A stretch of DNA of 64,000 bases from an uncultured Gammaproteobacteria bacterium (GCA_964641245.1 CAZXML010000002.1:10548-74547), one strand, 5' to 3'. Shown: positions 6,582 to 56,243, counted from the first letter of the stretch. The notes: generated by a model not told the origin, from the letters alone. Numbers and translations are program-made.

Positions 6582-7694
6582 TTATTTCTTAATCCAACGC
6601 AAATACGCCTCACCGAGCGGCAACAAATTTCCTTCCAAAACACCTTCCGGATCCGTGGATTCGTATTCGGTGCGGTGATCTTTTACCAAATGATACGGAT
6701 GCAAAACATAAGAACGGATTTGATTGCCCCATTCCGCTGATTTATATTCCCCGCGCAATTCTTTTCTTTCCGCGGCTTTTTTTTCTTCTTCCAAACGGTG
6801 CAAGCGCGCTTTCAAAACTTTCATGGCCATGTCTTTATTTTGCTGTTGCGAGCGTTCGTTTTGGCATTGCACGGTAATGCCGGTGGGAATATGCACAATG
6901 CGCACGGCCGAATAAGTGGTGTTCACACTTTGCCCGCCGTGCCCGCCGGCCATAAAAGTGTCTATGCGGATATCTTTGGAATCAATTTCAATTTTTATTT
7001 CATCATTTATTTCCGGCAAAACTTCTATTAAAGCAAAAGAAGTATGACGCATTTTTTCCGCATCAAACGGCGAAATACGCACCAGGCGATGCACGCCGTG
7101 TTCGGATTTTAAATAACCAAAAGCAAAACGCCCTTTGACTTCAAACATAATGGATTTATAACCCGCTTCCGCCCCGCGCGATTCGTCTACCACTTTTGTT
7201 TTCCAACCCATTTTATCGCAATACCGCATTACCATCCGCAACAGCATTTCGGCCCAGTCTTGCGCTTCGGTACCACCACTGCCGGCGTGGATAGCAATGA
7301 TGGCATTATTTTTATCATACGGACCGTTTAACAAAACATACAATTCGTATTCGGAAAATTCTTTGGCAACTGTTTTGGTTTGCTGTTCTATTTCGCCGGA
7401 CAATGATTCATCCCCGGAACTTGCTTGCCCCGCCGTGGCGGTGGATAATTCAATTAAATCATTTGTTCTTTTTTCCAAATCCGCAAATTTTTCCACTTCT
7501 TTTTTTATATCCTGATAATCCTGGGAGGTAGCCTGCGCGTTTTCCTGATTACTCCAAAAATCCGGCGCGTTCATTTCTGCAGCCAGCTGTTCCGATTTTT
7601 TTTGCAATTCATCTATATTAAGAAGTTTTTTTGTTTCGGAAATTTTGGATTGCAGTTCTTTCAAATCTTCTAAAGACATACCCTTAATTGTCAT
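6582..7694 (-). CDS. prfB: peptide chain release factor 2
   Basis: 370-aa single ORF; SPF tripeptide (RISPFDA) and GGQ motif; no +1 frameshift site needed. Confidence 0.9.
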   Translation of the reverse strand: MTIKGMSLEDLKELQSKISETKKLLNIDELQKKSEQLAAEMNAPDFWSNQENAQATSQDYQDIKKEVEKFADLEKRTNDLIELSTATAGQASSGDESLSGEIEQQTKTVAKEFSEYELYVLLNGPYDKNNAIIAIHAGSGGTEAQDWAEMLLRMVMRYCDKMGWKTKVVDESRGAEAGYKSIMFEVKGRFAFGYLKSEHGVHRLVRISPFDAEKMRHTSFALIEVLPEINDEIKIEIDSKDIRIDTFMAGGHGGQSVNTTYSAVRIVHIPTGITVQCQNERSQQQNKDMAMKVLKARLHRLEEEKKAAERKELRGEYKSAEWGNQIRSYVLHPYHLVKDHRTEYESTDPEGVLEGNLLPLGEAYLRWIKK

Positions 7695-8023
7695 CCTGAA
7701 CTTGATTCAGGATCTGTCGCGATTGTTTCAGCATCTATCCACTCGCTGTACAGATCTTTTAGTTCTGGATTTAATTCTTTAATTAAATTTAGCTTCCAAT
7801 CTCTATGCCAATTCTTCAGCTGTTTCTCCCGTCTAATTGCATCATCAGGACGACTAAATGATTCATAATAAACTAATTTCTTTATTCTATACTTCTTGCT
7901 AAAACCACTATTAAGTTCATTTATATGCTCCCACATTCTTCGTTCCAGATTATTACTGACGCCAATATATAACGTCGTATTCGTATAGTTCGTAACTATA
8001 TAAACATAATAATTTTTTCTCAT
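7691..8023 (-). CDS. GIY-YIG nuclease family protein
   Basis: YVYIVTN...LYIGVSNNLERRMWEH, typical GIY-YIG/UPF0213; C-terminal codons read into repeat at 7691-7737. Confidence 0.75.
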   Translation of the reverse strand: MRKNYYVYIVTNYTNTTLYIGVSNNLERRMWEHINELNSGFSKKYRIKKLVYYESFSRPDDAIRREKQLKNWHRDWKLNLIKELNPELKDLYSEWIDAETIATDPESSSG

Positions 8024-8094
8024 AAGACACAGGCGCCGAATAGATCCTGAAACAAGTTCAGGATGACAGCCTCACCGAACAAACACATCCAAGA

Positions 8095-8586
8095 TCAAAA
8101 TATCCTCCCCGCGCCAAGGGTAATTAACAGAGTCAAAGTCCCGGAAATAATAACACCGATAAAAATAGACAGCCATGATTTCCAAAATGGCAGGGCAAAA
8201 ATAAACGCCGCGACTGCGCCGGTCCAGGCTCCGGTGCCCGGAAGCGGAATGCCCACAAAAATAGCCAGACCGATTAAGCCGTATTTTTGATAATCACCCG
8301 CGAATTTGTGCTGGGTGCGATCCAAAGTTTTAACCCATGTTGAAGCAAACCAGCCGGCGCGTTTATGTACCCAAGCGTGAAAATGTTTAGCAAAAGCCAA
8401 AATAATAGTGACCGGAATCATATTGCCCAGCACTGACCACAAAAACGCTTCCCAAATCGGGAGTTTATACGCCAACACCGCCACCGGCAAAGCCAGACGA
8501 ATTTCTCCAATCGGCGTGGCGCCCATTAGAAACGTTGCCAACTCCGGAGGAAATGATGAAAAAAATATGATAATTGATTGGGTCAT
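8095..8586 (-). CDS. small multidrug-export-like (COG2426) polytopic membrane protein
   Basis: 163-aa, 4-5 TM helices, GATPIGE(I/L)RLALP motif typical of Sm_multidrug_ex family. Confidence 0.5.
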   Translation of the reverse strand: MTQSIIIFFSSFPPELATFLMGATPIGEIRLALPVAVLAYKLPIWEAFLWSVLGNMIPVTIILAFAKHFHAWVHKRAGWFASTWVKTLDRTQHKFAGDYQKYGLIGLAIFVGIPLPGTGAWTGAVAAFIFALPFWKSWLSIFIGVIISGTLTLLITLGAGRIF

Positions 8587-8658
8587 ACGTGGTTAATTCT
8601 ACTCTTAATCTTTGTATTTTACAACAAAGGACGCCCTTTGTAAGGGGCGTCATTTTAT

Positions 8659-8726
8659 TGTCATCCTGAACTTGTTTCAGGATCTGTTTGTGTACCGTTA
8701 GATGCTGAAACAAGTTCAGCATGACA
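8659..8726. repeat. family A double-hairpin element (tgtcatcctgaacttgtttcaggatc ... gatgctgaaacaagttcagcatgaca)
   Basis: copies 7691-7737 (partial), 12690-12757, 14863-14941, 17799-17877, 26943-27079 (composite), 46687-46753, 56113-56243 (composite). Confidence 0.85.
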
Positions 8727-10415: not shown

Positions 10416-10503
10416 TGTCATTGCGAGGAGCCGTAGCGACGCGGCAATCCCATTGTCGGCACAACCAGTACTGTGGGATTGCTTCACTTCGTTCGCAATG
10501 ACA
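10416..10503. repeat. family C palindromic element between groES and groEL
   Basis: see 6078-6182. Confidence 0.85.
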
Positions 10504-10796: not shown

Positions 10797-10890
10797 ACAA
10801 AATTTAATTAACAATTAACAACTAACAATGAACAAACTAACACGGAACAGCGGGCAATTGTTAATTGCTAATTGTTAGTTGCTAGTTATT
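10797..10890. repeat. family H TTAATTGTTAA-type palindrome in groES 5' leader
   Basis: aattaacaattaacaactaacaatgaacaaac...ttgttaattgctaattgttagtt; related copies at 54807-54856 and within pheT 52845-52880. Confidence 0.6.
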
Positions 10891-11272: not shown

Positions 11273-12682
11273 TCAACTTTGCCTGTTTTGGTCAATAAAC
11301 CCAAGCCCAATAATAACCCACAAAAAAATTATTCCTGTGGACATACTGGCCAGCCAATGATCAAAAAGTCCGGCTACCAATAAAGCGGTTATTATGGGAA
11401 GAAATAAGAGATTGGTTTTATAGATTTTTATAAATAGATAAATGATAAATAATAAAAATAAAAATGCCGACAGAATACCAAACTCTACTATCGCTAACAA
11501 ATAAATATTATGAATCGGCTGATACTGCCAAGATGCCAACGTGGGATATTTTTTAAATGATGCGTAAGTATACGCGCCGGGGCCGATGCCAAAAATTGGA
11601 TTGGTTTGAATAAAAGACAGCGCCTCGGCGTACTGATCCTTTCTTTCGGAAATAGATTTTGCTTCCAGGCGGTTGTTTAGATTAAACCTGGCTGTAAATA
11701 CGGGATAAAAAATTATTAGCCAGAAAATAATTACCGCCAGAGCAAATAGGATTTGTTTGGTAAATTCTTTCAAGGCTGTCGTGGCATCGCGGCCTCCCTC
11801 CCCTTTTAGGGGAGGGGCGAGGGGTGGGGTATCCGTTCGGTTATCATTGTACGCCGAATACCCCTCTCTCTGTCTCTCCCCTAAAAGGGGAGAGAGCGAT
11901 TGATGATGGTGATGTTTAAAAAATATAATAGCAAACAGAGACGCCACGCCAACTGTCGCCGCCACCCACGCCCCGCGAGAAAAAGAAAGAAGCAATCCTG
12001 ATAAAATAAATAGCTGGCCCGCGCTGATTATTATTTTGCTCCGTCCCGATTCGGCTTTAAGATATAAAACCAAACCCAGCACAAATAAAACCGCCAAATA
12101 AATTCCCAACGAATTTGGCGAGCCAAAACTGCCATACGCCCGCAACCATCTTTGGTCGGCAAACTCTATTACGCTCGGACCCAAATTGTAAGCCTCCTGC
12201 CCGGCCATACCCAACCATTTGCTGGCCCAAACATTCTGATTTAAAAACTGCCAAATAGCCAGCACACCCTGCAAAATTCCACCCGCCCAAAGAGCAATTT
12301 GATATTTTGTCTTTTCATCCTGCCAAGCCAGAACGACCATTAAGGCCATTGCCTCCAGTAATTTAAAAATATAATTATACGAAACCCAAAAATTTTTACT
12401 TAACATCGTGGAAAAAAATACCGACATTAAAAACAGCATTAAAATTAAAATTGTTTGGTTCCTTTTTTCTTTTAGTCTTGTCCAAAAAGATTTATTAACA
12501 AAATGGTGGAAAAAAAACAAAAGTATAATCATCCACAGCAAAATTTCCGTACCATAAAGACTGGAGGTTCCGTACTCCCAAAATCCTTTATTTAATTCGC
12601 CGTATTGCCAAATATATCTGGTTTGCCATGGCAACAGAAACAGGAATAGCAACAATAACAAATTATATATTTTTTTCATCAT
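11273..12682 (-). CDS. O-antigen ligase (Wzy_C/WaaL)-like polytopic membrane protein with in-frame GC-rich element
   Basis: 469 aa, >10 TM helices, YGSFGSPNSLGIYL motif typical of O-antigen ligase family; residues ~255-300 (HHHHQSLSPLLGERQREG...PPLKGEGGRD) encoded by GC-rich palindrome 11786-11897. Confidence 0.6.
   Translation of the reverse strand: MMKKIYNLLLLLFLFLLPWQTRYIWQYGELNKGFWEYGTSSLYGTEILLWMIILLFFFHHFVNKSFWTRLKEKRNQTILILMLFLMSVFFSTMLSKNFWVSYNYIFKLLEAMALMVVLAWQDEKTKYQIALWAGGILQGVLAIWQFLNQNVWASKWLGMAGQEAYNLGPSVIEFADQRWLRAYGSFGSPNSLGIYLAVLFVLGLVLYLKAESGRSKIIISAGQLFILSGLLLSFSRGAWVAATVGVASLFAIIFFKHHHHQSLSPLLGERQREGYSAYNDNRTDTPPLAPPLKGEGGRDATTALKEFTKQILFALAVIIFWLIIFYPVFTARFNLNNRLEAKSISERKDQYAEALSFIQTNPIFGIGPGAYTYASFKKYPTLASWQYQPIHNIYLLAIVEFGILSAFLFLLFIIYLFIKIYKTNLLFLPIITALLVAGLFDHWLASMSTGIIFLWVIIGLGFIDQNRQS
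11786..11897. repeat. family E GC-rich palindromic element (in-frame in membrane protein gene)
   Basis: see 4519-4636. Confidence 0.8.
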
Positions 12683-12689
12683 ACTCTTG

Positions 12690-12757
12690 TGTCATCCTGA
12701 ACTTGTTTCAGGATCTATTTTATTTTCTTGAGATGCTGAAACAAGTTCAGCATGACA
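12690..12757. repeat. family A element
   Basis: see 8659-8726. Confidence 0.85.
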
Positions 12758-14835: not shown

Positions 14836-14862
14836 AAACGTGAAATTTTTAATTTTTAACCT

Positions 14863-14941
14863 GTCATGCTGAATTTATTTCAGCATCTCTGTTGGTGTGT
14901 ATTTAATTGAACGAAGATCCTGAAACAAGTTCAGGATGACA
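14863..14941. repeat. family A element (half-sites in swapped order)
   Basis: see 8659-8726. Confidence 0.8.
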
Positions 14942-16161: not shown

Positions 16162-16309
16162 ATGTTTTTTGTCATCCTGAACGTAGTGAAGGATATCTGT
16201 CTTAATCGCCGAACGGACAGAGATTCTTCGCTTTGCTCAGAATGACAGTTAAAAAAATTAGTTAAAAAAAAGCAGCTTCATTATTGAAGCGCTTTACATC
16301 AATAGAATA

Positions 16310-17786: not shown

Positions 17787-17798
17787 ACTTTTAATATT

Positions 17799-17877
17799 GT
17801 CATCCTGAATTTATTTCAGGATCTGCTTGTTATTTGTTATAGATGCTGAAACAAGTTCAGCATGACAGTGTTCCTTA
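17799..17877. repeat. family A element
   Basis: see 8659-8726. Confidence 0.85.
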
Positions 17878-19376
17878 TGCCTGCTCCTCGCAATGACAAA
17901 AACCAATAACAGATACATTCCCAACATCGCCCAAAATGGTATCTGCAGATTAACCGCGCTCCAATTTTTATTTCCAAACCAATCCACGATAATTATAACA
18001 TAGTTTAAACCCAAACCCGCCACCCAGGCAATTGCCTGCCCCAAAGGAAAAAATATAAAACTAAAAATTAAGGATATAAAACCAAACAGCATTAGCCACG
18101 GCACCAGCCATAAAATTAAAATATTAACCAACGGAGCCACAACGGAAAACCTTTCAAATTGATATATTACAAGCGGCATGGTGGCAATGATGGCCGAAAT
18201 TGTGGTGATAAAAACCTGAATCGTGGCCACTAAAATTGGACTTTCCGGTTTTAATTTTTTATCAACAAGGCTCTGAATAACCGGCGAAAGATAAACCAAT
18301 CCCAATGTGGACAAAAATGAAAGCTGGAATCCGGCATCCCAAACCAGTAAATAAGGATTAAGCAAAAGCATAATTACCGCCGCATATATCAACACCCTGC
18401 CTATTGCGGATAACCTACCTGTGTGCTGGGAAATCAGAATAATTACAGCCATTACCCCCGCCCGCACCACCGAGGCCGTGGCGCCGGTAAAAAATACAAA
18501 GGACAAAATTAAAAATATTAAAAACCAAAAGGACTGGCGGCGAAAAAATCCCAGATAAATTAAAATAATATTTAACGCCACCGCCAAAATACTGACATTG
18601 TACCCGGACACCGCCATAATATGGCTGATTCCGGTACGGCTAAAATTATCCACCAACTCCTGCGGCAAACCGCTGCGGCTGCCATAGAGCAAGCCGGCCA
18701 TTAAACTGCTGTACGGTTCCGGCCACAAACGGGCCATCCGCGATTTTATATTATTTTTTAATTGCAACATGATTTTTATAAAAATATTACCATCATTTTC
18801 CCCCAATGAATTTATGGTTGGATTGCCGCAGACCGACCATACTCCCTGTTTGGCCAAGTATTTTTTATAATTAAAATTGGAATCGGCGAAATTTTCCGGC
18901 TCCAGCAAAGAACAGGTTATTGCCAATTTTTCTCCGTAAGCATATTCCGGATAAATTCTGGTTTTTATAATTACTTTACCGGCAATTTGTTTGCCTTCTT
19001 CTAAACCGGTCACACTCACAATATACCGCGCGTCACTTACGCCAATATCCGGCTCCGCTGAAACCCAGCCTTGCAAAGTTACTTTTTGTCCGTTATAAAA
19101 TTCTATTCTTGATGAATTGTGATTGGGAATACTAATAAAAAATCTCAATCCGCCGAAAATAAAAAATAACAAACATAACAAAAAAAATTTATATAACTTA
19201 TTGTCCCAAAAAATGATTATTAAAAATAAAAAGATAAATGACAGGAGATAAACAGATAACGCCAATTTGCCGTTCGCGACAAAAGAAAACGCGCTAACGC
19301 CGGCAATAAAACAAAAACAAAACGCGATAAACGTTTTGCTTTTTGAATTTATTATTTTGGCTAGCGCCTCCGGCAT
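17811..19376 (-). CDS. ComEC/Rec2 family competence membrane protein (DUF4131 + competence domain, no lactamase domain)
   Basis: GLLYGSRSGLPQELVDNFSRTGISHIMAVSGYNVSIL signature; ATG 19376 preferred to TTG 19391; C-terminus reads into repeats at 17799-17900. Confidence 0.8.
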   Translation of the reverse strand: MPEALAKIINSKSKTFIAFCFCFIAGVSAFSFVANGKLALSVYLLSFIFLFLIIIFWDNKLYKFFLLCLLFFIFGGLRFFISIPNHNSSRIEFYNGQKVTLQGWVSAEPDIGVSDARYIVSVTGLEEGKQIAGKVIIKTRIYPEYAYGEKLAITCSLLEPENFADSNFNYKKYLAKQGVWSVCGNPTINSLGENDGNIFIKIMLQLKNNIKSRMARLWPEPYSSLMAGLLYGSRSGLPQELVDNFSRTGISHIMAVSGYNVSILAVALNIILIYLGFFRRQSFWFLIFLILSFVFFTGATASVVRAGVMAVIILISQHTGRLSAIGRVLIYAAVIMLLLNPYLLVWDAGFQLSFLSTLGLVYLSPVIQSLVDKKLKPESPILVATIQVFITTISAIIATMPLVIYQFERFSVVAPLVNILILWLVPWLMLFGFISLIFSFIFFPLGQAIAWVAGLGLNYVIIIVDWFGNKNWSAVNLQIPFWAMLGMYLLLVFVIARSRHKEHCHAELVSASITNNKQILK

Positions 19377-22300: not shown

Positions 22301-22521
22301 AAAACATTTTTGCCGTCCATTCTTTTTTTTCGGGAAATTACATCCATGGCCGTAAAAGGCCGCGGATGGCCCACGTGCAAACCCTCGCCACTAGGGTAAG
22401 GAAATTCTATCAGCGAATAAAACTTTTCCTTGTCTTTATCTTCTGTAACTTCAAAAGTCTTATGGCTCTCCCAATACTTTTGCCATTTCTTTTCTATTAA
22501 CTTAGGATTATACTTTTTCAT
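19381..22521 (-). CDS. leuS: leucine--tRNA ligase with three in-frame insertions (family C element, HAD-like domain, family B element)
   Basis: HVGH (HIGH), editing-domain VFTTRPDT and GTGAIMGVPAHDERDYEFA, KMSKSKGN; 1046 aa vs typical 800-880. Confidence 0.93.
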   Translation of the reverse strand: MKKYNPKLIEKKWQKYWESHKTFEVTEDKDKEKFYSLIEFPYPSGEGLHVGHPRPFTAMDVISRKKRMDGKNVLFPIGFDSFGLPTENYAIKTGKQPAEVTKKNIANFTRQLKMLGYSFDWSRTVDTSNPKYYKWTQWLFLQFFKHGLAYKKNQPINWCPKDKIGLANEEVVNGCCERCGTPVEKRNKEQWMLAITKYADKLLAGLKNVDYIERARVQQENWIGRSEGALIHFVIASKAKQSQSTGGTNNGIAASPLAPRNDIEVFTTRPDTIFGATFVAISAELAKKWLDGGWEASEEVKKYIEETIAERAAATTREEMAKTGVDAGVKAVNPATKKEVPVWITNYVLGEVGTGAIMGVPAHDERDYEFAKKFGLPIVEVVRSKEQKPKYLIFDFDGVLGDTYEASIVTRLKMGDVKNREEAVESINQYFSRKPNHTRGHNLSEEEVKKNLEWTQKFGEHMAKINFPLFDEFVGLVKNIPNTKIAVISAGSGLYMRERSQQTGLNPTHVLSFEDHHSKEEKIEMVCKDWGIKVSDVYYFTDSKADVYELENFMDRKKLIGCAWGYCGYDALRELLPEDQVLKESTDINKIFGTQVFTESGELVNSGQFSGMDSKKAKSEIIEFVGGKPQVQFKLRDWVFSRQRYWGEPIPLVNCPDCGWVPLPESELPLELPKVKKYQPTDTGESPLAAMEKWVNTKCPKCGGPAKRETDTMPNWAGSSWYYLAYALGGQKSKIKNQNYWNQELLKYWMPVDWYNGGMEHVVLHLLYSRFWNIFLHDIGLVPHSEPYAKRTAHGMILSKGGEKMSKSKGNVVNPDEMVEKFGADALRTYIMFMGPFDQAVEWDTNGVVGVKRFLDRVWLLQDKLSDSNVVILNKVKDPSLSDKRDSSVTPQNDKLTTLLHQTIQKVGDDIEAMRFNTAIAKMMELVNEMSKQESILLTHYSSLLKILSPFAPHMCEELWNTLGNNKTLVYEPWPEYNLELTKESTMTLAVQINGKVRDEIKVAAEMGEEEIKKLALAGEKVQKWLDGKEPKKIIYVKGKLVSIVV
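20737..21375 (-). other. HAD-superfamily hydrolase-like domain inserted in-frame in LeuS (residues ~383-595)
   Basis: motif I LIFDFDGVLGDT, motif II-like IAVISAGSG, motif IV-like FTDSKADV; flanked by canonical LeuS segments FAKKFGLPI (end of CP1) and KLRDWVFSRQRYWGEPIP. Confidence 0.6.
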
Positions 22522-40065: not shown

Positions 40066-40184
40066 AGTCTTTATTAATCAAATCAATTTTAAATCATGAT
40101 TCTTTATTCTAAACGCTCTAAAAACTATCTTAATTTTACCCCCTCCACACCATTTTTACAAGCCAAAAAGTAAACCCCCAAACC

Positions 40185-40285: not shown

Positions 40286-40364
40286 ATACTTGGAACACTT
40301 TGGTCGAAGAACTTAAGTTATTAATCCATACCGTAAAAAAAACTAGTAACGCAGATAACTAAAT

Positions 40365-42656: not shown

Positions 42657-42669
42657 ATGCGCAAATAAA

Positions 42670-44472
42670 TTAATCTAGTTTGTCAATAAGTTTTTCCAAT
42701 TCAACAATATCTTTCCATTGATAACAGTTACTTGGAGGATCTACGTTAAAATCAAGCAACGAATCAAGCAAACTCTCAATAACCAAAAACTTTTCCTCGT
42801 CTTCCATAATTGTAACCAGCGCGGTGTAAGGCTTCTCTTTTTTAAATGCTTCTCCAAAATAGGCTTCTTCAAAATTTGGAACTGAAGCTAGCAAACGAAC
42901 ATTTGCAGGAAACTTATGCGCGAGCGTTATATCTAATATGTCTTTATTTTTTGACCAGGCCGGGTTAGCTATAAATGACCTGTCTTTTTTTTCGACTTTC
43001 GGCCTATCACTATCATGTAAAATAGAGTAAGGCGCGCCGAAATGATTAAGAATTTTTGCAACCGAAACTATAGTGGCTTTACCGCGAGCCCTGATAATAT
43101 GAATATTGCTATACTTTTCTGGATTTTTTGCAATTATATATTTAAAAACGGTGTACTCAGTATCACCCTCAACAACTACAACTTTCCCGCCAAAAAAGAA
43201 TTCTGCCACATAAGGATCCCAGATATTCATTAATTTTAATAATTTCTTATCATCTTGTTCCAATCCAACTTTTTCTGGCCTAAAAATCGTTGTTCCTTTT
43301 ATGTCACCAGAAGAATTTTTTTCGACCCTAATAATGGTGGTATTGTCTCTTGAAACATCAATAAAATTAGGCGAGTGAGTTGTAATCATGACCTGCCAGT
43401 TTGAGCTTGGCAGTCCATATAATAAATTACATGCATGGCGTATTGCATCGGGGTGCAAACAAATTTCAGGCTCATCGAGCAAAAGAACATGCGATCTGGT
43501 TACCTCTCCATCCTTGTCTTTCTTTGTTTTTGATTCAGAGATAATTTGCAATGCCGTCCATAATAATGTCCTACGAGCCCCGCTACCTTGCGCCTCAATT
43601 GTTCCAAGATACCCACCAGTTGGACCCATCAAAAGTTGTGGGCTGTTTTTAAAAAGTGATATGGCTTTATCTGGATCGTCTTCTGGTTTAGCATTAAACC
43701 GGACTTGATAATTTGGGAAAACTTTTCCGATCAAATTTGTAAGCTCATCTTGAACTTTATCTATTTCAGTTTGTGACTCTAGTACAATTTTTTTTTGGAG
43801 ACTTTTAACTTGGCTCAACAGAATCCCATAATCTGATCCTTCCTCTTCCTTTTTCAAATCCTTTATTCTATTAGTAAGCACTGAGGATAAAAGTTTTGTT
43901 ATTTCTTCTGCCTGATCTTCGGGTAAATCAAATGCCCCAATCCTATGCGGTTGAGGTCTGCGGGAATTCGCCACACCGGGCGCACCCCACGGAACTTTCT
44001 CATCCCAACCACCATTTACATTAAGCCCCTGACGTTTAGGGTCTCCTGGCTGTGCCCAACACCATCGCTCAATAACAATTTTTTCTTTGCCAATTTCGTG
44101 TATCCATTCTTGTCCAGGAAAATTATTATATACTATTGTATGTAAGACGATTTCAGGCAAATTATTTTCATCGATCCTACCATTAGGAAAATCCTGAATC
44201 ATCAATTTACCGTCTGCCGATCCCTGCGACATAACTATTTCATACGCACGAAGAATGGAACTTTTCCCTACATTATTTGGTCCTACCAAAACAACAATAT
44301 CATCTAGCTCAATCTCAACGGGGTTAGCACCTATACAACGAAAATTTTTGATACTTAGTTTTTGTAAGCGTTGACGACCTTCAGCTACAAGCTCTAAAGC
44401 CAATTTTCTTTCTATAGGCACAGGCAATTTTGGCATAAATTTAATGCATTTATTAAACTTAAAGCTTATCAT
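42670..44472 (-). CDS. OLD-family/GajA-like nuclease: ABC-type ATPase + C-terminal Toprim
   Basis: Walker A GPNNVGKSS, Walker B/D-loop LLLDEPEICLHPD, H-loop ITTHSP, Toprim VVVVEGDTEYTVF and ILHDSD. Confidence 0.75.
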   Translation of the reverse strand: MISFKFNKCIKFMPKLPVPIERKLALELVAEGRQRLQKLSIKNFRCIGANPVEIELDDIVVLVGPNNVGKSSILRAYEIVMSQGSADGKLMIQDFPNGRIDENNLPEIVLHTIVYNNFPGQEWIHEIGKEKIVIERWCWAQPGDPKRQGLNVNGGWDEKVPWGAPGVANSRRPQPHRIGAFDLPEDQAEEITKLLSSVLTNRIKDLKKEEEGSDYGILLSQVKSLQKKIVLESQTEIDKVQDELTNLIGKVFPNYQVRFNAKPEDDPDKAISLFKNSPQLLMGPTGGYLGTIEAQGSGARRTLLWTALQIISESKTKKDKDGEVTRSHVLLLDEPEICLHPDAIRHACNLLYGLPSSNWQVMITTHSPNFIDVSRDNTTIIRVEKNSSGDIKGTTIFRPEKVGLEQDDKKLLKLMNIWDPYVAEFFFGGKVVVVEGDTEYTVFKYIIAKNPEKYSNIHIIRARGKATIVSVAKILNHFGAPYSILHDSDRPKVEKKDRSFIANPAWSKNKDILDITLAHKFPANVRLLASVPNFEEAYFGEAFKKEKPYTALVTIMEDEEKFLVIESLLDSLLDFNVDPPSNCYQWKDIVELEKLIDKLD

Positions 44473-44504
44473 TTGACTAATACAAAGTCAAAACAAGCAA
44501 AGCA

Positions 44505-44610
44505 CCGCCCAAACCAAACACCAAAAAACACCCTTTCGGATGTCTTTTGCGTGATCTGCCAAGTCCAACCCCTCTCGGTCACTTGAACCTGTACAGCAGT
44601 GTAGTCCCAA
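44505..44610. repeat. ~100-bp direct repeat copy B abutting tRNA-Glu 3' end
   Basis: cccaaaccaaacaccaaaaaacaccctttcggatgtcttttgcg...ccctctcggtcacttgaacctgtacagcag shared with copy A. Confidence 0.7.
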
Positions 44611-44673
44611 CGGGAATTGAACCCGTATTTTCGCCTTGAAAGGGCAATGTCCTAACCATTAGACGATGAGACC
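44602..44673 (-). tRNA. tRNA-Glu (anticodon TTC)
   Basis: cloverleaf by hand: acceptor GGTCTCA/TGGGACT (2 G-U), D-arm TCGTCTAATGGTTAGGACA, anticodon arm TTGCC-CTTTCAA-GGCGA, T-arm ACGGG-TTCAATT-CCCGT; closely resembles bacterial tRNA-Glu. Confidence 0.8.
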
Positions 44674-45585: not shown

Positions 45586-46683
45586 ATGTTAATTCTCGGC
45601 ATTGAATCTTCCTGCGACGATACTTCTGTGGCCTTACTAGATATTTCCGAAAAAGGCGCGGCTATTTTATTTGAAAAAACCGCTTCGCAAATTGAAATCC
45701 ATAAAAAATACGGCGGTGTGGTGCCGGAAATTGCCGGCCGGATGCACGCGGAAAAAATTGTGCCGCTTATAGACGCGGCGCTAAATGGAAGAATGATTAA
45801 GAAATTAGGAAATAAAGAAATTAAACCAGATGTGATTGCCGTAACCGCCGGACCGGGATTAATTACCGGGCTTTTAGTAGGGGTAGAAGCGGCGCGCGCT
45901 TTATCGTATGCATGGGATATTCCACTAATAAGAACAAACCACATAGAAGGACACGTCTATTCTGTTGTCATTGCGAGCCACAGCGAAGCAATCCCAAATA
46001 CTGATAGTTCTGACAATGGGATTGCCGCGTCGCTTAAAGCTCCTCGCAATGACATACAGTTCCCGGCCTTATGCCTAATCGTCAGCGGCGGGCATACGGA
46101 ATTAATTTTGATGAAAAACCACGGAAAGTATAAATTACTGGGCGCGACCAAAGACGACGCGGCGGGAGAATGTTTTGATAAGGCGGCAAAATTACTGGGG
46201 CTTCCCTATCCGGGCGGACCGCAAATTTCTAAACTGTCCGAAACCGGAAACCCGGCCGCGATAAAATTCCCCCGGCCGATGATGGCCGATGAAAATTATT
46301 TATTTAGTTTCGCCGGATTAAAAACTTCCGCTTTGTATTGGTTGCGCGACAATAAATTGAAAAATATTAACGACTTTTGCGCCAGTTTTGAACAGGCAAT
46401 TGTAGATGTTTTGGTGGCCAAAACTATTAAAGCCTCCATTCAATACAAACCAAAAACTATTATTTTAGCCGGCGGGGTTAGCGCCAACAAAAAACTTCGC
46501 CAAACATTAGGCGAAGTCATAGGCGCTAAATTTCCCGAAGTGAATTTTATGGCCCCGCAGACAAAGTATTCCATGGACAACGCCGCCATGATTGCCATGG
46601 CCGGATATTATCACGCCTTAAAAAAAGATTTTACTTCCTGGAAAAAAATCCAAGCCGACCCGAACTGGGAACTTGCTGAATAG
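45586..46683 (+). CDS. tsaD: tRNA N6-adenosine threonylcarbamoyltransferase TsaD, with in-frame palindromic-element insertion
   Basis: LGIESSCDDTSVAL, HxEGH metal site (NHIEGH), GGVSAN; ~30-aa insert VIASHSEAIPNTDSSDNGIAASLKAPRNDI from repeat 45966-46054. Confidence 0.9.
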   Translation: MLILGIESSCDDTSVALLDISEKGAAILFEKTASQIEIHKKYGGVVPEIAGRMHAEKIVPLIDAALNGRMIKKLGNKEIKPDVIAVTAGPGLITGLLVGVEAARALSYAWDIPLIRTNHIEGHVYSVVIASHSEAIPNTDSSDNGIAASLKAPRNDIQFPALCLIVSGGHTELILMKNHGKYKLLGATKDDAAGECFDKAAKLLGLPYPGGPQISKLSETGNPAAIKFPRPMMADENYLFSFAGLKTSALYWLRDNKLKNINDFCASFEQAIVDVLVAKTIKASIQYKPKTIILAGGVSANKKLRQTLGEVIGAKFPEVNFMAPQTKYSMDNAAMIAMAGYYHALKKDFTSWKKIQADPNWELAE

Positions 46684-46686: not shown

Positions 46687-46753
46687 TGTCATGCTGAATT
46701 TATTTCAGCATCTCTGTCCACCGATTAGATCCTGAAACTAGTTCAGGATGACA
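46687..46753. repeat. family A element overlapping dnaE stop codon
   Basis: see 8659-8726. Confidence 0.85.
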
Positions 46754-49700
46754 GTTGACAAATCCTTTTTCAACTCATCTGAAATATTTACCGTATACGA
46801 AGTTTTTATAATTTTTCCTCCCACATTTAACACCACCGGTTTATCTCCGGGGTATTTTTTTAAAATACTTTTTATGGCATCGGCTTTGGTTTTTACCTGA
46901 TCCGCGCTGACAACAATTTCAAAATTTTCGTCCGCTTCTTGAACCGGTTTAGCAACGGAACGACTCTGGCTAAAAGCCATTTGTTTTGCCAATGCAGGAG
47001 CATTTTCTTTTGTCAGCAAATAAGCTTTTTCTACAAACAATTTATCATCCCCTTCTTCTTCGGAAGTCCGTCCGATTACACAAACCGGTTTTCCTTCCAC
47101 CCAAACATCGGCGGTGGTTTCATAAGTTTTAGGAAAAATTAACAACTCCAAACTGCTGGTGGTATCCAATAATTTTGCGAACATCATGGCTTTGCCGCCG
47201 CGGGTTATTTTTTTCTTGGTGGAGTCTATCATACCACCCACCACCACCCACTGATTTCTGGTTTGCGCGGACAAATCTTTAAGCGGGGTTAAGACATCTT
47301 TCATTATATTCTGATAATAGGTAAAGGGATGCGAAGTAACATAAAGGCCAAGCAACTCTTTTTCCCACAAAAGTTTTTCTTCTTCACCGGCATTGGGCGC
47401 GGGGGCCAATTGAATTTTGGTGGACATGTCTATGTTGGTGCCGGCAAACAAAGAATTTTGATTTAATGATTTTTTTTCGTGAATTTGTTTAACATACGCC
47501 AGAATATTTTCTATATTGCCGGCCAGATAACCGCGATCCAGGCCAAAAGAATCCAGCGCCCCGCATTTTATTAAACTGTCCAATGATTTTTTATTCAAAT
47601 CTTTATCCGTCACTCTGGTTAATAAATCCTGCAGGTCTTTAAATTTCCCGTTGGCTTTTCGTTCGCGATAAATTGCCTCGGCAATGTGTTCGCCAAGATT
47701 TTTTATGCCGTTAAGGCCGAAGCGGATGTGTGGGGCGACTTTACTGTCATTCTGAGCAGAGCGAAGAATCTCTGTCTGGTTGTCGACGGTACGAGACAGA
47801 GATCCCTCGTCGCTACGGCTCGCTCGGGATGACAATTGCGCTTCATCATCTAATGGAGAAATCATTGCAAAATTTTTGAAGCTTTCGTTTATATCCGGCG
47901 GTAAAACCCGTACACCCATTCTTTCCGCTTCGTAAATAACTTCCGGAACCTTATCTATATCCCCGCTCTCGGCAATTAAAATAGCCGTCATATATTGCAC
48001 GGGAAAATTCGCTTTTAAATAAGCGGTTTGATAAGCCACCACCGCGTAACTGGACGCGTGGGCTTTGTTGAAACCGTAACCCTGAAACGGCTCAAATAAC
48101 TGCCATATTTCCTCCGCTTTTTCTTTGGTCAGGCCACCGTGCTTTTGGCATCCACTAACGAAAATAATGTGCTGTTTAGCCATTTCTTCCGGAATTTTTT
48201 TACCCACGGCTTTTCTGAATTTATCAACCTCTTCCCAGTTGTAACCGGCAACTTCAATAGCGGTCATTAAAAGATCATCCTGATATACAAGTACTCCGAA
48301 AGTTGTATCTAAAAAATTCTTCATCTTTGGGTGCATGTAAACAGCCGGCTTCCGACCATGCTTGCGCGCAATGTACTCGTCAATGTTATCCATTGGCCCG
48401 GGACGAAAAAGCGCAATCATCACCATAATATCAAAAATTGTCGATGGTACTAACTCTTTTAAATATCTGGTCATGCCTGAACTGGAAAGCTGAAACACGC
48501 CCACGGTTTCTCCGCGCGCCAACATCTCATAGGTTTTTTTATCATTCCACGGATACAAACCGTACACATTTATTTTCTGTCCGGTGGTTTTTTCTATAAT
48601 TTCTACCGCATGCCCCAAAATAGCCAGGTTGCGGATACCAAGAAAATCCATTTTTAAAACTCCGGCTGTTTCTACCGAATGCATTTCGTATTGAGTAATA
48701 ACGCGTTCGCCGCCAGTTTCCAGCTGAACGGGAGTAAAATCCGTAAGCGGGGTGGGAGAAATAACCACTCCGGCCGCGTGGATAGAGGTGTGGCGGGCGC
48801 AGCCTTCCACTTTTTGCGCCAAATCCAGCAAACGGTGGGCGTCCGCATTTTTTTCGTATAATTTTTTTAGTTCCGGTTCCAGGTTTAGGGCTTTAGCAAT
48901 TGTCATTTGAAAACCTTGCGCGCCGAATGGAATCAGTTTGGAAATTTGGTCGCAAAAAGAATAAGGAAAACCCAGCGCCCGGCCCACATCGCGTACCGCT
49001 CCGCGCGCCGCCATGGTACCAAAAGTAATAATCTGCGCCACTTTATCGGCGCCGTATTTTTTAGTAACATAGGCAATCATTTCGTCGCGCTTGTCATCGG
49101 CAAAATCGCCGTCAATATCCGGCGGGCTGGGGCGGAAAGGATTTAAAAATCTTTCAAACGGCAATTTAAAAAATAACGGATTGTCCATTACAATTCCCAT
49201 GGCAAAAGAAACTACCGAACCGGCGGCCGAACCTCTGGTGGTAACCATAATATCGTGAGTGCGGGCGTAACCCATATAATCAGCTACGGTTAAAAAATAC
49301 GGCGAATAGCCTTTAGTGGCAATAATATCCAATTCATAATCCACGCGTTTTTTTACTTCATCGGTCATTTCTATTAACTTTGGTAATTTTTCATAAACCT
49401 GTTCACGCAAATACTGGTTGGCGGTTTTTCCTTCCGGAATATCTATAGCCGGAAAATGCCACTTGTTAAGTTCCAAAACCAAGTTCACACGTTCGGCAAT
49501 TTTTACCGTGTTTTCCAGCGCTTCGGGAACATGTTTAAAACGGCCGATAATTTCTTGAGGCGGAGCCAAAGAAAGATCAATCGCGCTCATGGACAACCGG
49601 TTTTCTTCGTCCAATGTTCGGCCGTCTCTGATGCAGGTTAAAATATCTTGCGCTTCGGCATCGCTTGATTCCAAATAATGCGAATCGCGGGTGACAATTA

Positions 49701-50301: not shown

Positions 50302-50449
50302 AGTAGTATTTTTCGCTGTCATCCTGAACGCAGTGAAGGATCTCTGTCTCAATTACTGACCGGACAGAGATTCTTCGCTTTGCTCAGAATGACAGTTTGT
50401 GAGCAACTTAACTCGCCTATCGTACCTGAAAACACAAACTTAATCAAAC

Positions 50450-51273: not shown

Positions 51274-53757
51274 TTATCTCACCTCTGCGCCAAATTTTTC
51301 TTTTAATATTTTTATAACTGATGTGTGCGCTTTCTCTACTTCGTCGGCAACCAATGTGCGTTCGGAGCTTTGATAAGTAAAATGATAAGCCATGCTTTTA
51401 TGTTCGGCGCTTACGCCTTTTCCTTCATAAACATCGAATAATTCCACGGACTGTAAAAGCGGGCTGACAGCCGATAGCGCGGATAGTATATCCTCGTGCG
51501 CCACCGTTTTTTTTACCAAAATTGCCAAGTCGCGTTCCATGGTGGGAAATTCTGAAAGAGTCTTATATTTCTTTTCGGTTTCAGGAAAACCTGCCAACTC
51601 ATCCAGATTAAGAGACATCATTGCCACCGAACATTCCAAACCAAAATTGATTACAACCGTCGGGTGAAATTCAAATACCGCGCCCATATAACTATCGCCA
51701 ACTATCACCTGGCCGGAACGCGCCGGATGCTGCCACGGCCGTAGGTCTTTAATTTTTTCCAATTTAAATTCTCTGCCCAGTTCCTGAAAAACCGCCTCTG
51801 CCGCCCGGCGCGCTTCCCAAAAGGTATTTTTATTTTTCTTGGATGCAAAAACCGCATGCAACCAGGTGTCTTGCCTGGGCAAAAGTTCACTGCTGTTGGC
51901 TGTCGCTCTTACTCCGGGCTTTCCCGCTAAAAATTTCTTGCCCACTTCCAACAAGCGCAGTTCCGGATAATCATCTATGTTCTTTTTTACATTTTCTAAC
52001 AAATTATTCATTAAATGACGGCGTAAAAATGGCCGTTCTTGCGATAGCGGATTTTCCAACTCCAAATATTTAGAGACGTCTTGCCCCAGCTTGGCTATGC
52101 TCTGCGGACTGACAAAAGAATAATTATAAACTTCGGTGTAGGCCAACGAGTTAACTAAAATATCTTTACAGCGTCTTTCCAGTTTTTTTAACTTATTAAT
52201 TTCCGGAGGAGTTATGGAAAATTCCGGCAAACTCGCCTCAATTTTATCATAACCGTAAATACGGATTATTTCCTCCACCAAATCTTCCGGTGTAGAAACA
52301 TCTTTTGTGGCTCGCCAACTGGGAATGATTACGGATAACTCATCGGTTTTGCTTTTTACTTTAAAACCCAGGTTTTCCAGAATTCTTATCACTTCTTTTT
52401 TGGGCAAATTGACGCCTATTCTGTTCTTTAAAAATTCTAAGGAAATAGTAATCGGCCCTTGTTGCAAACTGAACTTGGATTCGTCCACAACTTTGCTCGC
52501 CACATAAGATTTGGGACAGCATTCCAAAACTAATTTCACCGCCATTTCCAAAGCCAGCGCCGTCATATTTGGATCCAAACTTTTTTCAAAACGAGCGGAA
52601 GAATCACTGCGCAATCCCAATTTAGTGGAAGTCTGGCGGATAGAACCGGCCTCAAAATTAGCCGACTCAAAAATTATTGTGGTTGTATCATTTGATATTC
52701 CGGAATCCAATCCACCCATCACGCCGGCAATGGCCAGCGCTTTTTCACTATCAGCAATCATTAACATTGCTGAATCCAATTTTCTCTTCTGACCATCCAG
52801 TGTAGTAAATTCTTCTCCGTCTTTGGCTGTTCTTATGTTTATTGTTAATTGTTTATTGTTAATTGTTAATTTGTTCGCATCAAACGCGTGCATCGGCTGA
52901 CCCAAATCCATCATTACATAATTGGTAATGTCCACAATATTATTTATCGGCCTCAATCCCACAGCCAGCAAACTTTTCTGCAACCATTGCGGAGACGGAC
53001 CGACACTTACTCCGCTAATTACCACCGCCATATATCGCGGGCATAATTTTGCGTCCTCAACTTCAACTTTTATATTTATTTCTTTGCCTGGTTTAATTTT
53101 ACTAATTTTACCACCGCCATGAGGCGGGGTCCCGCCGTGGGCGGGATATTCTTTCAGTTTTTTATCAAACAAGACAGCCACTTCACGGGCGATACCGTAA
53201 TGCCCCCACAAATCCGGCCGGTTGCTTAAAGACTTGTTGTCTATTTCTAGCACTGCGTCGTCTAACCCCAATGCTTTGGCCAAGGGCGTACCCGGCTTAA
53301 CTTTTAAATAACTTAAATCAACAATTTCTTTTTCTTCTTTAAGCGGGAACATTTCGCTCAAACCGATTTCGGTTGAAGCGCAAATCATGCCGGCGGATTC
53401 CACGCCGCGGATAGCCACCGGTTTTAATTCCACCAACTCGCCTTCTCCGTGCCATTTTACTTTCGCTCCTACTTTGGCCAATGCCACCAACATGCCGGCG
53501 GCCACATTACTGCCTCCGCAAACAATTTGTAATTGCTCACCGCCGACATCTACCGAACAAACTTTTAATTTGTCCGCGTTAGGATGCTTTTCGGCGCTGA
53601 TTATTTTTCCGACAACAATATTTTCCAGGTCTTTCCCCTGAACTTCCACGCCTTCCACTTCCACAGTGCTGGCCTTTAATCTGGCCGCCACTTCGGTAGC
53701 CGAAATTGAGTCGGGCAAATTAACGTATTTTTTTAACCAGGAATAGGATATTAACAT
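51274..53757 (-). CDS. pheT: phenylalanine--tRNA ligase beta subunit
   Basis: 827 aa; tRNA-binding, B3/B4, B5 and FDX-ACB regions; contains in-frame family H tandem (TINNKQLTINIRT) at 52845-52880. Confidence 0.92.
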   Translation of the reverse strand: MLISYSWLKKYVNLPDSISATEVAARLKASTVEVEGVEVQGKDLENIVVGKIISAEKHPNADKLKVCSVDVGGEQLQIVCGGSNVAAGMLVALAKVGAKVKWHGEGELVELKPVAIRGVESAGMICASTEIGLSEMFPLKEEKEIVDLSYLKVKPGTPLAKALGLDDAVLEIDNKSLSNRPDLWGHYGIAREVAVLFDKKLKEYPAHGGTPPHGGGKISKIKPGKEINIKVEVEDAKLCPRYMAVVISGVSVGPSPQWLQKSLLAVGLRPINNIVDITNYVMMDLGQPMHAFDANKLTINNKQLTINIRTAKDGEEFTTLDGQKRKLDSAMLMIADSEKALAIAGVMGGLDSGISNDTTTIIFESANFEAGSIRQTSTKLGLRSDSSARFEKSLDPNMTALALEMAVKLVLECCPKSYVASKVVDESKFSLQQGPITISLEFLKNRIGVNLPKKEVIRILENLGFKVKSKTDELSVIIPSWRATKDVSTPEDLVEEIIRIYGYDKIEASLPEFSITPPEINKLKKLERRCKDILVNSLAYTEVYNYSFVSPQSIAKLGQDVSKYLELENPLSQERPFLRRHLMNNLLENVKKNIDDYPELRLLEVGKKFLAGKPGVRATANSSELLPRQDTWLHAVFASKKNKNTFWEARRAAEAVFQELGREFKLEKIKDLRPWQHPARSGQVIVGDSYMGAVFEFHPTVVINFGLECSVAMMSLNLDELAGFPETEKKYKTLSEFPTMERDLAILVKKTVAHEDILSALSAVSPLLQSVELFDVYEGKGVSAEHKSMAYHFTYQSSERTLVADEVEKAHTSVIKILKEKFGAEVR

Positions 53758-54791: not shown

Positions 54792-54856
54792 ATGAATAAT
54801 TAACAACTAACAATAAACAAACAGCAATCGACAACCAACTTGTTAATTGTTAATTG

Positions 54857-56038
54857 CTAATTGTTAGTTATAGTATACCACCAATTTATAATTGCTCCGG
54901 AAAAATGCCCCAAATCTTTTACGGTAATAATAACCACCAATAACATTAAGGCCACAAACCCAAGACTATGCGCCATCTGTTCGTATTTTTGCTCTACCGC
55001 TTTGCGTTTAATGGCGCCGATCAGCAAGAACAGCAACCGGCCTCCATCTAAAGCCGGAATCGGCAAAATATTTATTATCGCCAAATTTAAAGAAAGCAAA
55101 GCGGTAAAATTTAACAAATAACTGAAACCCAATCTGGCTACCTGCCCGGTCATAACGGCAATCCCCACCGGACCGGACAATGCTTCTCCGGCTGGATTAC
55201 CGGCAAATAAACCGGCGATTAAAAAATAAAATGAAAAAAGTATTTCCTTCAAATAAAATCCGGTCATGAGAAATCCGTAATATAACGCTTTGTACCACGG
55301 ATAGCTTACCAAACCAACCTCTACCAAACTAACTCCCAACCCGCCCTTGCCGGTATCCGCGTAAATAAACGGATGAATCTTTTTTTCCAAAGTGGCGCCG
55401 TCTCTTTTTACAGTCACCAAAATATCCAAATCTTTGTGACTATCTACATATTCCTGCATGGCTTTGACGCTTGGATTGGTTAAATTATCCAGCCCAACAA
55501 TTATATCTCCGGCCTGCAACCCGGCCACAGCCGCCGGTTTATCGGCCATCGCTTCCATAATTTGTAAATGACTGTCTTTGACACTGGCTCCGCGCGGCAG
55601 ATTATCTACCGCCTGCGGCATACCCATCATCAACCCAATAGAAATCAAAACGAAAGCCAAAATTATATTCATACCCACGCCGGCGGATAAAGTAAGCGCC
55701 CGTTTCCAGGCCTTTTGCGCGCCAAAACTATCCGGACCGGGTTCGTCTCCGTTTTCTCCTTTTATATGAACGAAGCCGCCCAATGGAATTAGATTTAATG
55801 AATAGATTGTGTCCCCGCCCATTTGCTCCTCTTCTACAATTCTTTTTCTGCCGATTAACTTTAATTTTCTTTTACCATTAGCATTTTTAATCCACTGAAA
55901 CCCGATTAAACGCGGAGGAAAACCAAAACCAAACTCAAAAACTTTCATCCCGCTTTTACGCGCCACAATAAAATGCCCAAATTCATGGGATAAAACCAGC
56001 ACGGCCAGGACGGCGATAAAGATTAAGAAGGTTAACAT
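54857..56038 (-). CDS. rseP: RIP metalloprotease RseP (M50, site-2 protease) with PDZ domain
   Basis: HEFGHF zinc motif, PDZ, C-terminal LDGG motif; ATG 56038 preferred (TTG 56098 lies next to repeat). Confidence 0.88.
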   Translation of the reverse strand: MLTFLIFIAVLAVLVLSHEFGHFIVARKSGMKVFEFGFGFPPRLIGFQWIKNANGKRKLKLIGRKRIVEEEQMGGDTIYSLNLIPLGGFVHIKGENGDEPGPDSFGAQKAWKRALTLSAGVGMNIILAFVLISIGLMMGMPQAVDNLPRGASVKDSHLQIMEAMADKPAAVAGLQAGDIIVGLDNLTNPSVKAMQEYVDSHKDLDILVTVKRDGATLEKKIHPFIYADTGKGGLGVSLVEVGLVSYPWYKALYYGFLMTGFYLKEILFSFYFLIAGLFAGNPAGEALSGPVGIAVMTGQVARLGFSYLLNFTALLSLNLAIINILPIPALDGGRLLFLLIGAIKRKAVEQKYEQMAHSLGFVALMLLVVIITVKDLGHFSGAIINWWYTITNN

Positions 56039-56112
56039 AATTCTTGATATTTTAGTGCGTTTATTATATACTACCCACGTTAAAAAGCAAATAGACAAAT
56101 TTAACTCACAAC

Positions 56113-56243
56113 GTCATCCTGAACTTGTTTCAGGATCTACCGCCTGTCATTCCCGCAAAAGCGGGAATCCAGTCGGCGATTGTCTGGATTCCCATTGTCA
56201 TGGGAATGACAATTGCAGATGCTGAAACAAGTTCAGCATGACA
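56113..56243. repeat. family A element with nested family I element (tgtcattcccgc...gcgggaat...gggaatgaca, 56145-56211)
   Basis: outer arms are A-type hairpins; inner 67-bp palindrome is a distinct sequence. Confidence 0.8.

Follow-up and report, generated by a model that had tools for sequence, protein, structure and literature searches.

Tagged hairpin doublets and a small GIY-YIG nuclease gene in a Patescibacteria genome: a probable Ssn/SRM-type system with lineage-specific insertions

Introduction

Ssn is a family of small (~94-aa), single-domain GIY-YIG proteins (CDD cd10448) that bind the Neisseria hairpin NTS (CGTCATTCCCGCGMAVGCGGGAATCYRG) solely as single-stranded DNA and cut it a few bases upstream (Chenal et al. 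2025, Nat Commun 16:2388, PMC11893778). Hairpin binding and nicking upstream of the tag were demonstrated for four Ssn proteins, with cleavage governed by the three bases before the palindrome and binding by the C after it (PMC11893778). Ssn-related motifs (SRMs) lie near 71% of Ssn homologues and on both sides of 42%; this hairpin-gene-hairpin layout was noted as insertion-sequence-like, with mobility not shown, and the sole demonstrated role of Ssn and NTS is modulation of Neisseria transformation (PMC11893778). In N. meningitidis 2% of NTS are intragenic, and the Candidate Phyla Radiation (CPR) is not mentioned in that study (PMC11893778). Here we describe a 64-kb stretch of bacterial DNA (CAZXML010000002.1:10548-74547, referred to at its full length as the window) that carries many short elements bounded by TGTCAT...ATGACA, together with a gene for a protein of the Ssn type.

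A related group of repeats, the CGTC- or TGTC-tagged repetitive extragenic palindromes (REPs), has 8-9-bp stems starting with A-T and T-A pairs and loops of 4-5 nt, forms dimers and is in some cases intragenic (Di Nocera et al. 2013, BMC Genomics 14:522, PMC3733652). These REPs were found in five phyla, CPR not among them, and were judged to lack a dedicated transposase; the Rickettsia palindromic elements (RPEs) likewise end in CGTC (PMC3733652).

Our analysis indicates that the window very probably holds an Ssn/SRM system, and the explanation that we favour as a whole is that the TGTCAT...ATGACA elements are inverted pairs of SRMs, which we consider probable. What is new here is the CPR host, arm variants that depart from the published pattern, asymmetric doublets with many in-frame copies, and comparative evidence of recent gain.

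Results

Tagged doublets are abundant and partly intragenic

All positions refer to the whole window, and elements were sought as TGTCAT paired with ATGACA at a distance of 40-450 nt. This pair search recovered 21 doublets of 67-136 nt (seven of family A, nine of B, four of C and one of I) and one further element of 380 nt at 7689-8068; together the tagged repeats occupy ~3.3% of the window. The family-A/B end, TGTCATCCTGA (at most one mismatch), occurs 34 times vs 0.48 expected, and the family-C end, TGTCATTGCGAGG, eight times vs 0.07 expected. The repeats are not an assembly artefact, as the window is matched at 100% identity by a JGI contig and by Logan assemblies from two sequencing runs; two Logan contigs break off inside a B copy, at 3882. 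Other contigs, recovered with genes near the window ends, were short and either lay inside the window or were broken at repeats.

The tagged copies are as follows, where "both" marks recovery by the pair search and by the arm scan described below, and L-numbers are our labels for other sequences, introduced in the text.

3812-3890, family B doublet, in frame in ksgA (rRNA adenine dimethylase); both
6078-6182, family C doublet, in frame in tsaC/sua5; both
6477-6560, family B doublet, between prfA and tsaC; both
8659-8726, family A doublet, downstream of groEL; both
10416-10503, family C doublet, between groES and groEL; both
12690-12757, family A doublet, site empty in L083; both
14862-14941, family A doublet, between nusA and yidC, site empty in L083; both
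16170-16247, family B doublet, upstream of nusA; pair search
17798-17867, family A doublet, 3' end of comEC, absent in L083; both
17886-17898, family-C fragment, after the A doublet 17798-17867; end-sequence search
19839-19912, family B doublet, in frame in leuS, loop near residue 870
21735-21823, family C doublet, in frame in leuS, near residues 232-262
26943-27078, family A doublet with nested D, in frame in truB, absent in L002, L004, L007 and L083
29771-29853, family B doublet, downstream of the RNase Y gene, absent in L083; both
33247-33339, family B doublet, divergent intergenic region; both
34696-34779, family B doublet, downstream of a U32 peptidase gene; pair search
45966-46054, family C doublet, in frame in tsaD; both
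46687-46753, family A doublet, between convergent tsaD and dnaE; both
47745-47834, family B doublet, 90 nt, in frame in dnaE, within the HHH_6 domain
50317-50394, family B doublet, 5' end of dnaE; both
56112-56243, family A doublet with family I nested in its spacer; both
56145-56211, family I doublet, left arm a near-canonical Neisseria NTS

A first-pass annotation of this DNA had placed such repeats between 7691 and 56243, mostly at gene boundaries, and had divided them into at least seven families. Most copies do fall within that range, but three doublets lie upstream of it (3812, 6078 and 6477). Fourteen of the 21 doublets are intergenic and seven are in frame within genes, so that placement at gene boundaries holds for two thirds only. 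All seven families exist; four of them, A, B, C and I, form one superfamily rather than four independent families. Both composite copies that it had described proved real in the element search: the family I doublet 56145-56211 sits within the spacer of the A doublet 56112-56243, and a 75-nt D element (26962-27036) sits within the left-arm loop of the A doublet 26943-27078.

A common arm design underlies families A, B, C and I

Each element consists of two inverted arms with their tags pointing outward, and one design is common to the arms of families A, B, C and I. It consists of (T/C)GTC, a palindrome that opens with AT and closes with AT, and a C. A scan of the window for GTC followed by an AT...AT palindrome and C returned 41 arms vs 0.78 in dinucleotide shuffles, which bears out the earlier suggestion that these families share a terminal tgtcat...atgaca. 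The base before GTC is T in 40 arms and C in one, so that all 41 begin (T/C)GTCAT, in keeping with the HGTCWY that precedes the palindrome in the published SRM pattern; the stem opens with an A-T and then a T-A pair. The family A arm is TGTC-ATCCTGAA-CTTGT-TTCAGGAT-C, with an 8-bp stem and a 5-nt loop, and the family I arm is TGTC-ATTCCCGC-AAAA-GCGGGAAT-C, with an 8-bp stem and a 4-nt loop. Those of families B (TGTC-ATCCT-(11)-AGGAT-C) and C (TGTC-ATTGC-(12-29)-GCAAT-C) combine a 5-bp stem with a loop of 10-29 nt.

The two arms of an element differ in a constant way. A copies always combine one ATCCTGAA arm with one ATGCTGAA arm, and B copies one ATCCT arm with one ATTCT arm, the opposite side of the stem being changed to match in each variant; this consistent, stem-matched asymmetry indicates that the doublet is the unit that is copied. 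Arms are near-identical between copies, and family-A spacers are unrelated. In its strict form (tag, perfect stem of 5 bp or more, 3' C), the scan was passed by 41 of the 44 arms of the 22 elements found by their terminal repeats; the three others are at 16170 (no C), 34696 (a stem mismatch) and 26943 (interrupted by the D insert).

The check on target-site duplications proposed in the first-pass annotation was carried out, and none was found at any of the 22 elements. The flanks show a weak A-Y preference before the tag (a pyrimidine at the last base in 38 of 44, an A at the preceding base in 22 of 44), and no arm has a T-run after the tag. Covariation in A-type arms looked perfect but is biased by the way in which arms were selected; we did not use it as proof and draw no DNA-versus-RNA argument from it.

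The published SRM pattern, HGTCWYN(0-2)YYVSBRHN(0-5)WNVSBRGN(0-2)RNCYNB, which was hand-built from 29 genomes, has a single match in the window, at 56145-56172. This is the left arm of family I, which differs from the strict NTS consensus at two of 28 positions. Families A, B and C are thus variants outside that pattern that keep the positions known as determinants of Ssn action.

An ssn gene lies between two family-A arms

The 380-nt element found in the pair search contains a complete gene for a small GIY-YIG protein:

7689-8068, minus strand, candidate autonomous unit: A arm, ssn, A arm, tags outward
7691-8023, minus strand, ssn, encoding a 110-aa single-domain GIY-YIG nuclease (Pfam GIY-YIG)

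The flanking arms, 7690-7714 (plus strand) and 8043-8067 (minus strand), are both of family A by the arm scan. Residues 4-79 match the Pfam GIY-YIG profile in full (positions 1-78 of 78; E = 9e-17). The right-hand arm precedes the ATG by 20 nt, and the left-hand arm runs into the gene: the intact arm supplies ~7 C-terminal residues of Ssn (DPESSSG), a remnant of an arm contributes ~5 more (DAETI), and the TGA stop lies within the ATGACA tag. The same tag supplies the bases ATGA (7691-7694) that the ssn stop shares with the ATG of the prfA (release factor 1, RF-1) open reading frame (ORF), a putative prfA start; since ATGACA contains ATG, each element end offers an outward-facing start codon. 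In the JGI annotation the gene is called from Met31, and the GIY motif is thereby lost. Searches of solved structures and NCBIfam with Ssn gave no informative match.

Ssn is 45% identical over 86 gapless residues (E = 3e-25) to an NTS-embedded ORF of N. gonorrhoeae, reached by tblastn of plasmid records in which two chromosome-sized N. gonorrhoeae entries matched. This ORF is the only reported match in its 2.17-Mb record, and nine canonical NTS units lie within 1.4 kb on both sides of it; because of this context and its length we take the ORF to be the probable ssnA orthologue.

The association of arms with ssn extends to other phyla. Among the 120 best Ssn homologues, which come from Patescibacteria, KSB1, Elusimicrobiota and unassigned metagenomes, 56 carry an arm-encoded tail (DPETSSG, DAETSSA, DPEINSG or similar), and tails of the DPETSSG/DAETSSA type are translations of the two A-arm variants. 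The arm-ssn-arm layout recurs in L145 (Parcubacteria), L150 (KSB1) and L151, each with one A-type arm that precedes the start by 15-30 nt and a second, inverted one that covers the stop, and the stems vary between these loci yet are fully paired. L007, a Magasanikbacteria-like sequence, has a 54%-identical Ssn between C-type arms in a locus dominated by C-type doublets, which suggests that enzymes and hairpins form cognate pairs. Arms and ssn genes are thus linked both in the window and in other phyla. The first-pass annotation had supposed that the shared end might be recognised by a trans-acting nuclease; the end does match the Ssn determinants, and a gene of the Ssn type lies between two A arms at 7691-8023, whose product may also catalyse movement. 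That annotation had noted neither this ORF nor the in-frame copies within genes.

Similar hairpins occur in viral contigs. The exact family-A arm is present in 12 of them; one (L164, IMGVR_UViG_3300010223_000008) has 20 tagged arms of several families on the same strand, as single units and not inverted doublets, and one further viral contig (L157) encodes an Ssn homologue.

Relatives lack the elements at the same sites

A scan of GTDB genomes with leucyl-tRNA synthetase (LeuRS) places the host among CPR (Patescibacteria) bacteria near Ca. Magasanikbacteria, and not in the Bacteroidota or cyanobacteria that were considered at first. In L002, the nearest GTDB representative, 23 kb contain no arm, and L007 has 11 arms. 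Closer relatives were recovered by a scan of metagenomes with initiation factor 2 (IF-2). The closest of them, L083, has an IF-2 94% identical at the protein level and a nucleotide identity of 80-86%, and is collinear with the window from 12.4 to 31.2 kb.

No arm was found in L083, and in alignments all eight doublets of the shared interval are absent; also missing there are the element of family G and one more TruB insert. At 80-86% nucleotide identity the intergenic empty-site alignments are too noisy for base-exact junctions. The reverse situation occurs in the short spacer between the genes for IF-2 and thioredoxin (trx), which is empty in the window and in L083 and is filled in L085, L087, L090 and L091 by doublets of type B, type C or another type. 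Relatives with the same sites empty have 85-94% IF-2 protein identity. The copies are therefore lineage-specific insertions, including the nested ones and those in frame in essential genes. The first-pass annotation had read the repeats as inserted elements rather than simple terminators, and this view is upheld by the eight of eight sites that are empty in L083 and by the clean extra segments at intragenic copies; the comparison across relatives that it had proposed likewise revealed sites that differ between them, with L083 and the 23 kb of L002 free of arms.

In-frame copies lengthen conserved proteins

The seven intragenic doublets lie in six proteins, KsgA, TsaC, LeuRS (two), TruB, TsaD and DnaE, where they appear as clean extra segments of 24-45 aa in comparison with orthologues and solved structures. 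The B insert in KsgA (3812) adds ~24 aa at residues 206-236 vs a solved structure; the C insert in TsaC (6078) adds 33 aa between residues 100 and 101 of 6f89; and the B insert in DnaE (47745) adds ~39 aa vs the Taq Pol III alpha structure 2hpi, with the Pfam HHH_6 match stretched across 129 aa. The C insert in TsaD (45966) divides the Pfam TsaD match into two parts. Both LeuRS inserts, B (19839) and C (21735), are absent in 10 orthologues, and the A+D insert in TruB (26943) is absent in four (L002, L004, L007 and L083).

The LeuRS loop near residue 870 is occupied by a B insert in the window, by one of type C in L007 and by a third kind in L094, and is free of inserts in the closest relatives. 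The loop has been hit independently in three lineages and could be either a permissive site or a preferred target.

Two of these proteins carry further insertions. TruB (327 aa) also holds a GC-rich insert of ~28 aa (26667-26750), absent from orthologues, and a family-G insert of ~38 aa (27273-27390) with a clean empty site in L083, so that truB contains three inserts drawn from four repeat families. LeuRS (19381-22521) has a HAD-like hydrolase domain (Pfam HAD_2, residues ~386-600) inserted after the editing domain; it is found in L002, L087 and L089 too and is absent from L083, L088 and L096. An extra insert of ~150 aa occurs in the LeuRS of L002 and L089, and a different one of ~170 aa at the zinc-binding region in L006 and L007.

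Untagged repeats and other features of the window

Families D, E and G are outside the tagged system. Three D-like copies are present, all without the tag, as are the following:

4522-4639, 11788-11903 and 22538-22638, family E, GC-rich double hairpin, three copies, no tag
27273-27390 (in frame in truB) and 27986-28045, family G, multi-hairpin element, two copies, no tag

The family-E copy 11788-11903 lies, apparently in frame, within a Wzy_C-like ORF (11273-12682), so that untagged GC-rich double hairpins may also occupy coding sequence.

A second small nuclease gene, encoding a 137-aa PD-(D/E)XK protein (Pfam PDDEXK_3, 56873-57286), stands between LemA and M48 peptidase genes and is bracketed exactly by a 41-nt inverted repeat of 88% identity (56828-56868 and 57292-57332), reminiscent of insertion sequence (IS) ends; no other copy of this repeat occurs in the window. 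A defence island of 32-38% GC (36141-44673) encodes a HTH-SocA antitoxin-like protein, a MmeI-type restriction-modification enzyme, nSTAND3-Mrr and an OLD-family nuclease, and contains 97-nt direct repeats at 40177-40273 and 44508-44604, the second adjoining a tRNA-Glu gene. Unlike the housekeeping backbone, the region from 34.8 to 45.9 kb has no tagged hairpins. AT-rich runs of TTGTTAATTG-like units (10807-10887, 52828-52871 and 54792-54869) are intergenic, near groES and the pheS/pheT starts. A 123-nt direct repeat of 85% identity (58678-58800 and 62446-62568) has its copies 3.8 kb apart among ORFs without a Pfam match, and a very large ORF (minus strand, 1-2897) is truncated by the window start; in the Logan contig L154 it exceeds 2,360 aa. 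An Rfam scan of the window gave two tRNAs only and no match to the repeats.

Discussion

We propose a mechanism in which a small nuclease acts at both ends of each doublet. Arms would fold into hairpins where DNA is single-stranded, as during replication, transcription or uptake; Ssn would bind the hairpin and the C that follows it and would nick a few bases 5' of the GTC tag. Because the arms are inverted, such nicks would fall on opposite strands just outside both element ends, and host repair or replication could then copy the unit to new sites or transfer it there, leaving no target-site duplication. We infer that the Ssn encoded in the window cleaves A, B, C and I and that the nicks cause transposition; families B, C and I may, alternatively, be served by further ssn genes outside the window. 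By analogy with MITEs (miniature inverted-repeat transposable elements) and insertion sequences, or with REPINs and the REP-associated tyrosine transposase (RAYT), the short doublets may be miniature, gene-less versions of the arm-ssn-arm unit. That Ssn drives the spread of the doublets seems to us an evenly balanced proposition. The more specific proposal, that the arm-ssn-arm unit and the gene-less doublets are active transposable elements driven by a hydrolytic GIY-YIG single-stranded DNA nuclease and expanding in a CPR lineage, is attractive but we advance it tentatively, leaning slightly towards doubt.

Several points weigh against this interpretation. GIY-YIG enzymes hydrolyse DNA without a covalent intermediate, and Ssn alone is thus incapable of strand transfer or rejoining. 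Ssn cuts the tagged strand only, which gives one nick per strand per doublet and not a single-strand excision. Mobility of SRMs has never been shown experimentally, the role in Neisseria being modulation of transformation (PMC11893778). Families A, B and C did not match the published degenerate SRM pattern in our scan of the window; with that pattern hand-built from 29 genomes, the mismatch lowers the fit to the published motif and not the shared architecture. Only one ssn is visible in 64 kb, with A-type arms, which leaves B, C and I without a visible gene of their own. The combination of near-identical arms and divergent spacers could reflect selection or conversion acting on the arms and not recent copying. 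The scanner takes perfect Watson-Crick stems only, so that the 100% pairing and the missing wobble pairs are in part an effect of selection.

In one alternative the hairpins are host-domesticated sites: Ssn and its hairpins would restrict or modulate incoming or recombining single-stranded DNA, the copies would be retained because of this function, and their spread would be a by-product of recombination or another mechanism. This is the only role shown by experiment for the Ssn/NTS system, in Neisseria; the window encodes ComEC, which makes DNA uptake plausible, and strongly conserved arms with unconserved spacers are what selected sites would be expected to show. It leaves unexplained, however, the eight of eight new insertions relative to a close relative and the nested copies; a restriction site would be of no obvious benefit inside KsgA, TsaC, LeuRS, TruB, TsaD or DnaE, and seven of 21 doublets are intragenic here vs 2% of NTS in N. 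meningitidis. We therefore regard domestication as an unlikely account of the elements, while noting that it and Ssn-driven mobility are compatible and not mutually exclusive.

The remaining alternatives fare considerably worse against the same data. The small hairpins with an unpaired tag, the inverted dimers, the absence of target-site duplications and the single-strand logic all recall REP/REPIN elements or IS200/IS605-derived miniatures (PMC3116915, PMC3733652), whose mover would be a HUH transposase (RAYT or TnpA) with its gene in another part of the genome, and it was to enzymes of this kind that the first-pass annotation had looked. The tag is TGTC and not GTAG, however, and CGTC-tagged REPs were found unlinked to RAYT genes (PMC3733652). 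The arm-bracketed gene encodes a GIY-YIG nuclease instead, in the window and in four other lineages (L007, L145, L150 and L151), and no HUH, DDE or TnpB transposase family was matched by the 59 ORFs scanned of the 84 of at least 100 aa in the window; we think a HUH transposase very improbable as the mover. Classical MITEs moved by a DDE transposase would agree with the terminal inverted repeats of B and C (~30 nt) and with a copy length of 67-136 nt, but the lack of a target-site duplication at 22 elements, the lack of a DDE match in the scanned ORFs and the REP-like form of the ends, hairpins whose unpaired tag is conserved, make this explanation highly implausible. Nor do we give much credence to intrinsic terminators, or hairpins that stabilise or regulate the RNA of flanking genes, an explanation to which we assign only a slight chance: although 14 of 21 doublets lie between genes and a few family-A left arms score weakly in a terminator scan, the tag is not followed by a T-run, arms occur in both orientations relative to genes, seven copies are in coding sequence, close relatives lack the copies at orthologous sites, and the repeats have no Rfam match. 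At the 3' end of groEL, moreover, a separate GC-rich hairpin with a T-tail (8630-8651) stands beside the A copy 8659-8726.

The reading that we prefer, inverted pairs of SRMs associated with an Ssn, bears on what the 2025 Ssn study left open, namely the mobility of the repeats and their role outside Neisseria. The dense repeats (~3.3%), the nearby nuclease gene, the small-genome CPR host and the relatives with empty sites bear on both mobility and role, and these features make mobility directly testable with public groundwater metagenomes and oligonucleotide assays. The 2013 survey of CGTC-tagged REPs had no enzyme for its repeats, and the window supplies a gene in the same stretch as the repeats. 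A Rickettsia-like phenomenon, in which selfish hairpins are tolerated in frame in six essential genes, appears here in a second reduced-genome lineage. There are also consequences for the analysis of CPR genomes, where gene calling and the comparison of protein lengths are affected, as illustrated by the mis-started ssn in the JGI annotation and by assemblies that break at repeats. If the proposed mobility is real, active doublets add peptide segments to essential translation and replication proteins and leave no target-site duplication, and the elements would constitute a class of transposable element run by a GIY-YIG nuclease and not by a HUH, DDE or serine/tyrosine recombinase.

The window resembles the Ssn/SRM system of other bacteria in its small single-domain GIY-YIG gene between tagged hairpins, in the GTC before and the C after the palindrome, and in the hundreds of dispersed copies that are implied. 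It differs in its CPR host, in asymmetric inverted doublets, in the 5-bp stems and 10-29-nt loops of B and C, and in the third of doublets that are in frame in essential genes vs 2% intragenic copies in N. meningitidis; the comparative evidence of recent insertion given here is also absent from the Ssn study. Among the CGTC-tagged REPs, families A (8-bp stem, 5-nt loop) and I (8-bp stem, 4-nt loop) fit, whereas B and C (5-bp stems, 10-29-nt loops) break the stem and loop rules.

The likeness to RPEs considered here is one of behaviour. These elements, reportedly described by Ogata and colleagues in 2000, are said to be in-frame insertions in conserved genes of a reduced-genome bacterium, where they are tolerated as added peptides, and the window shares with them the in-frame palindromic inserts in conserved protein genes. 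RPEs are longer, single elements of an alphaproteobacterium, and linkage to a nuclease gene was not known when they were described. The REPIN/RAYT system shares the inverted hairpin pair with a spacer as the replicating unit, a bracketed single-copy enzyme gene and the absence of a target-site duplication (PMC3116915), but it combines a GTAG tag with a HUH tyrosine transposase (Bertels and Rainey 2011, PMC3116915), where the window combines TGTC with a GIY-YIG hydrolase. Finally, the 'peel and paste' elements of the IS200/IS605 group resemble the system described here in subterminal hairpins that are read in single-stranded DNA, in a cut near the foot of the hairpin and in leaving no target-site duplication; their ends are read on one strand by a covalent HUH enzyme, whereas here the arms are inverted and there would be no covalent intermediate.

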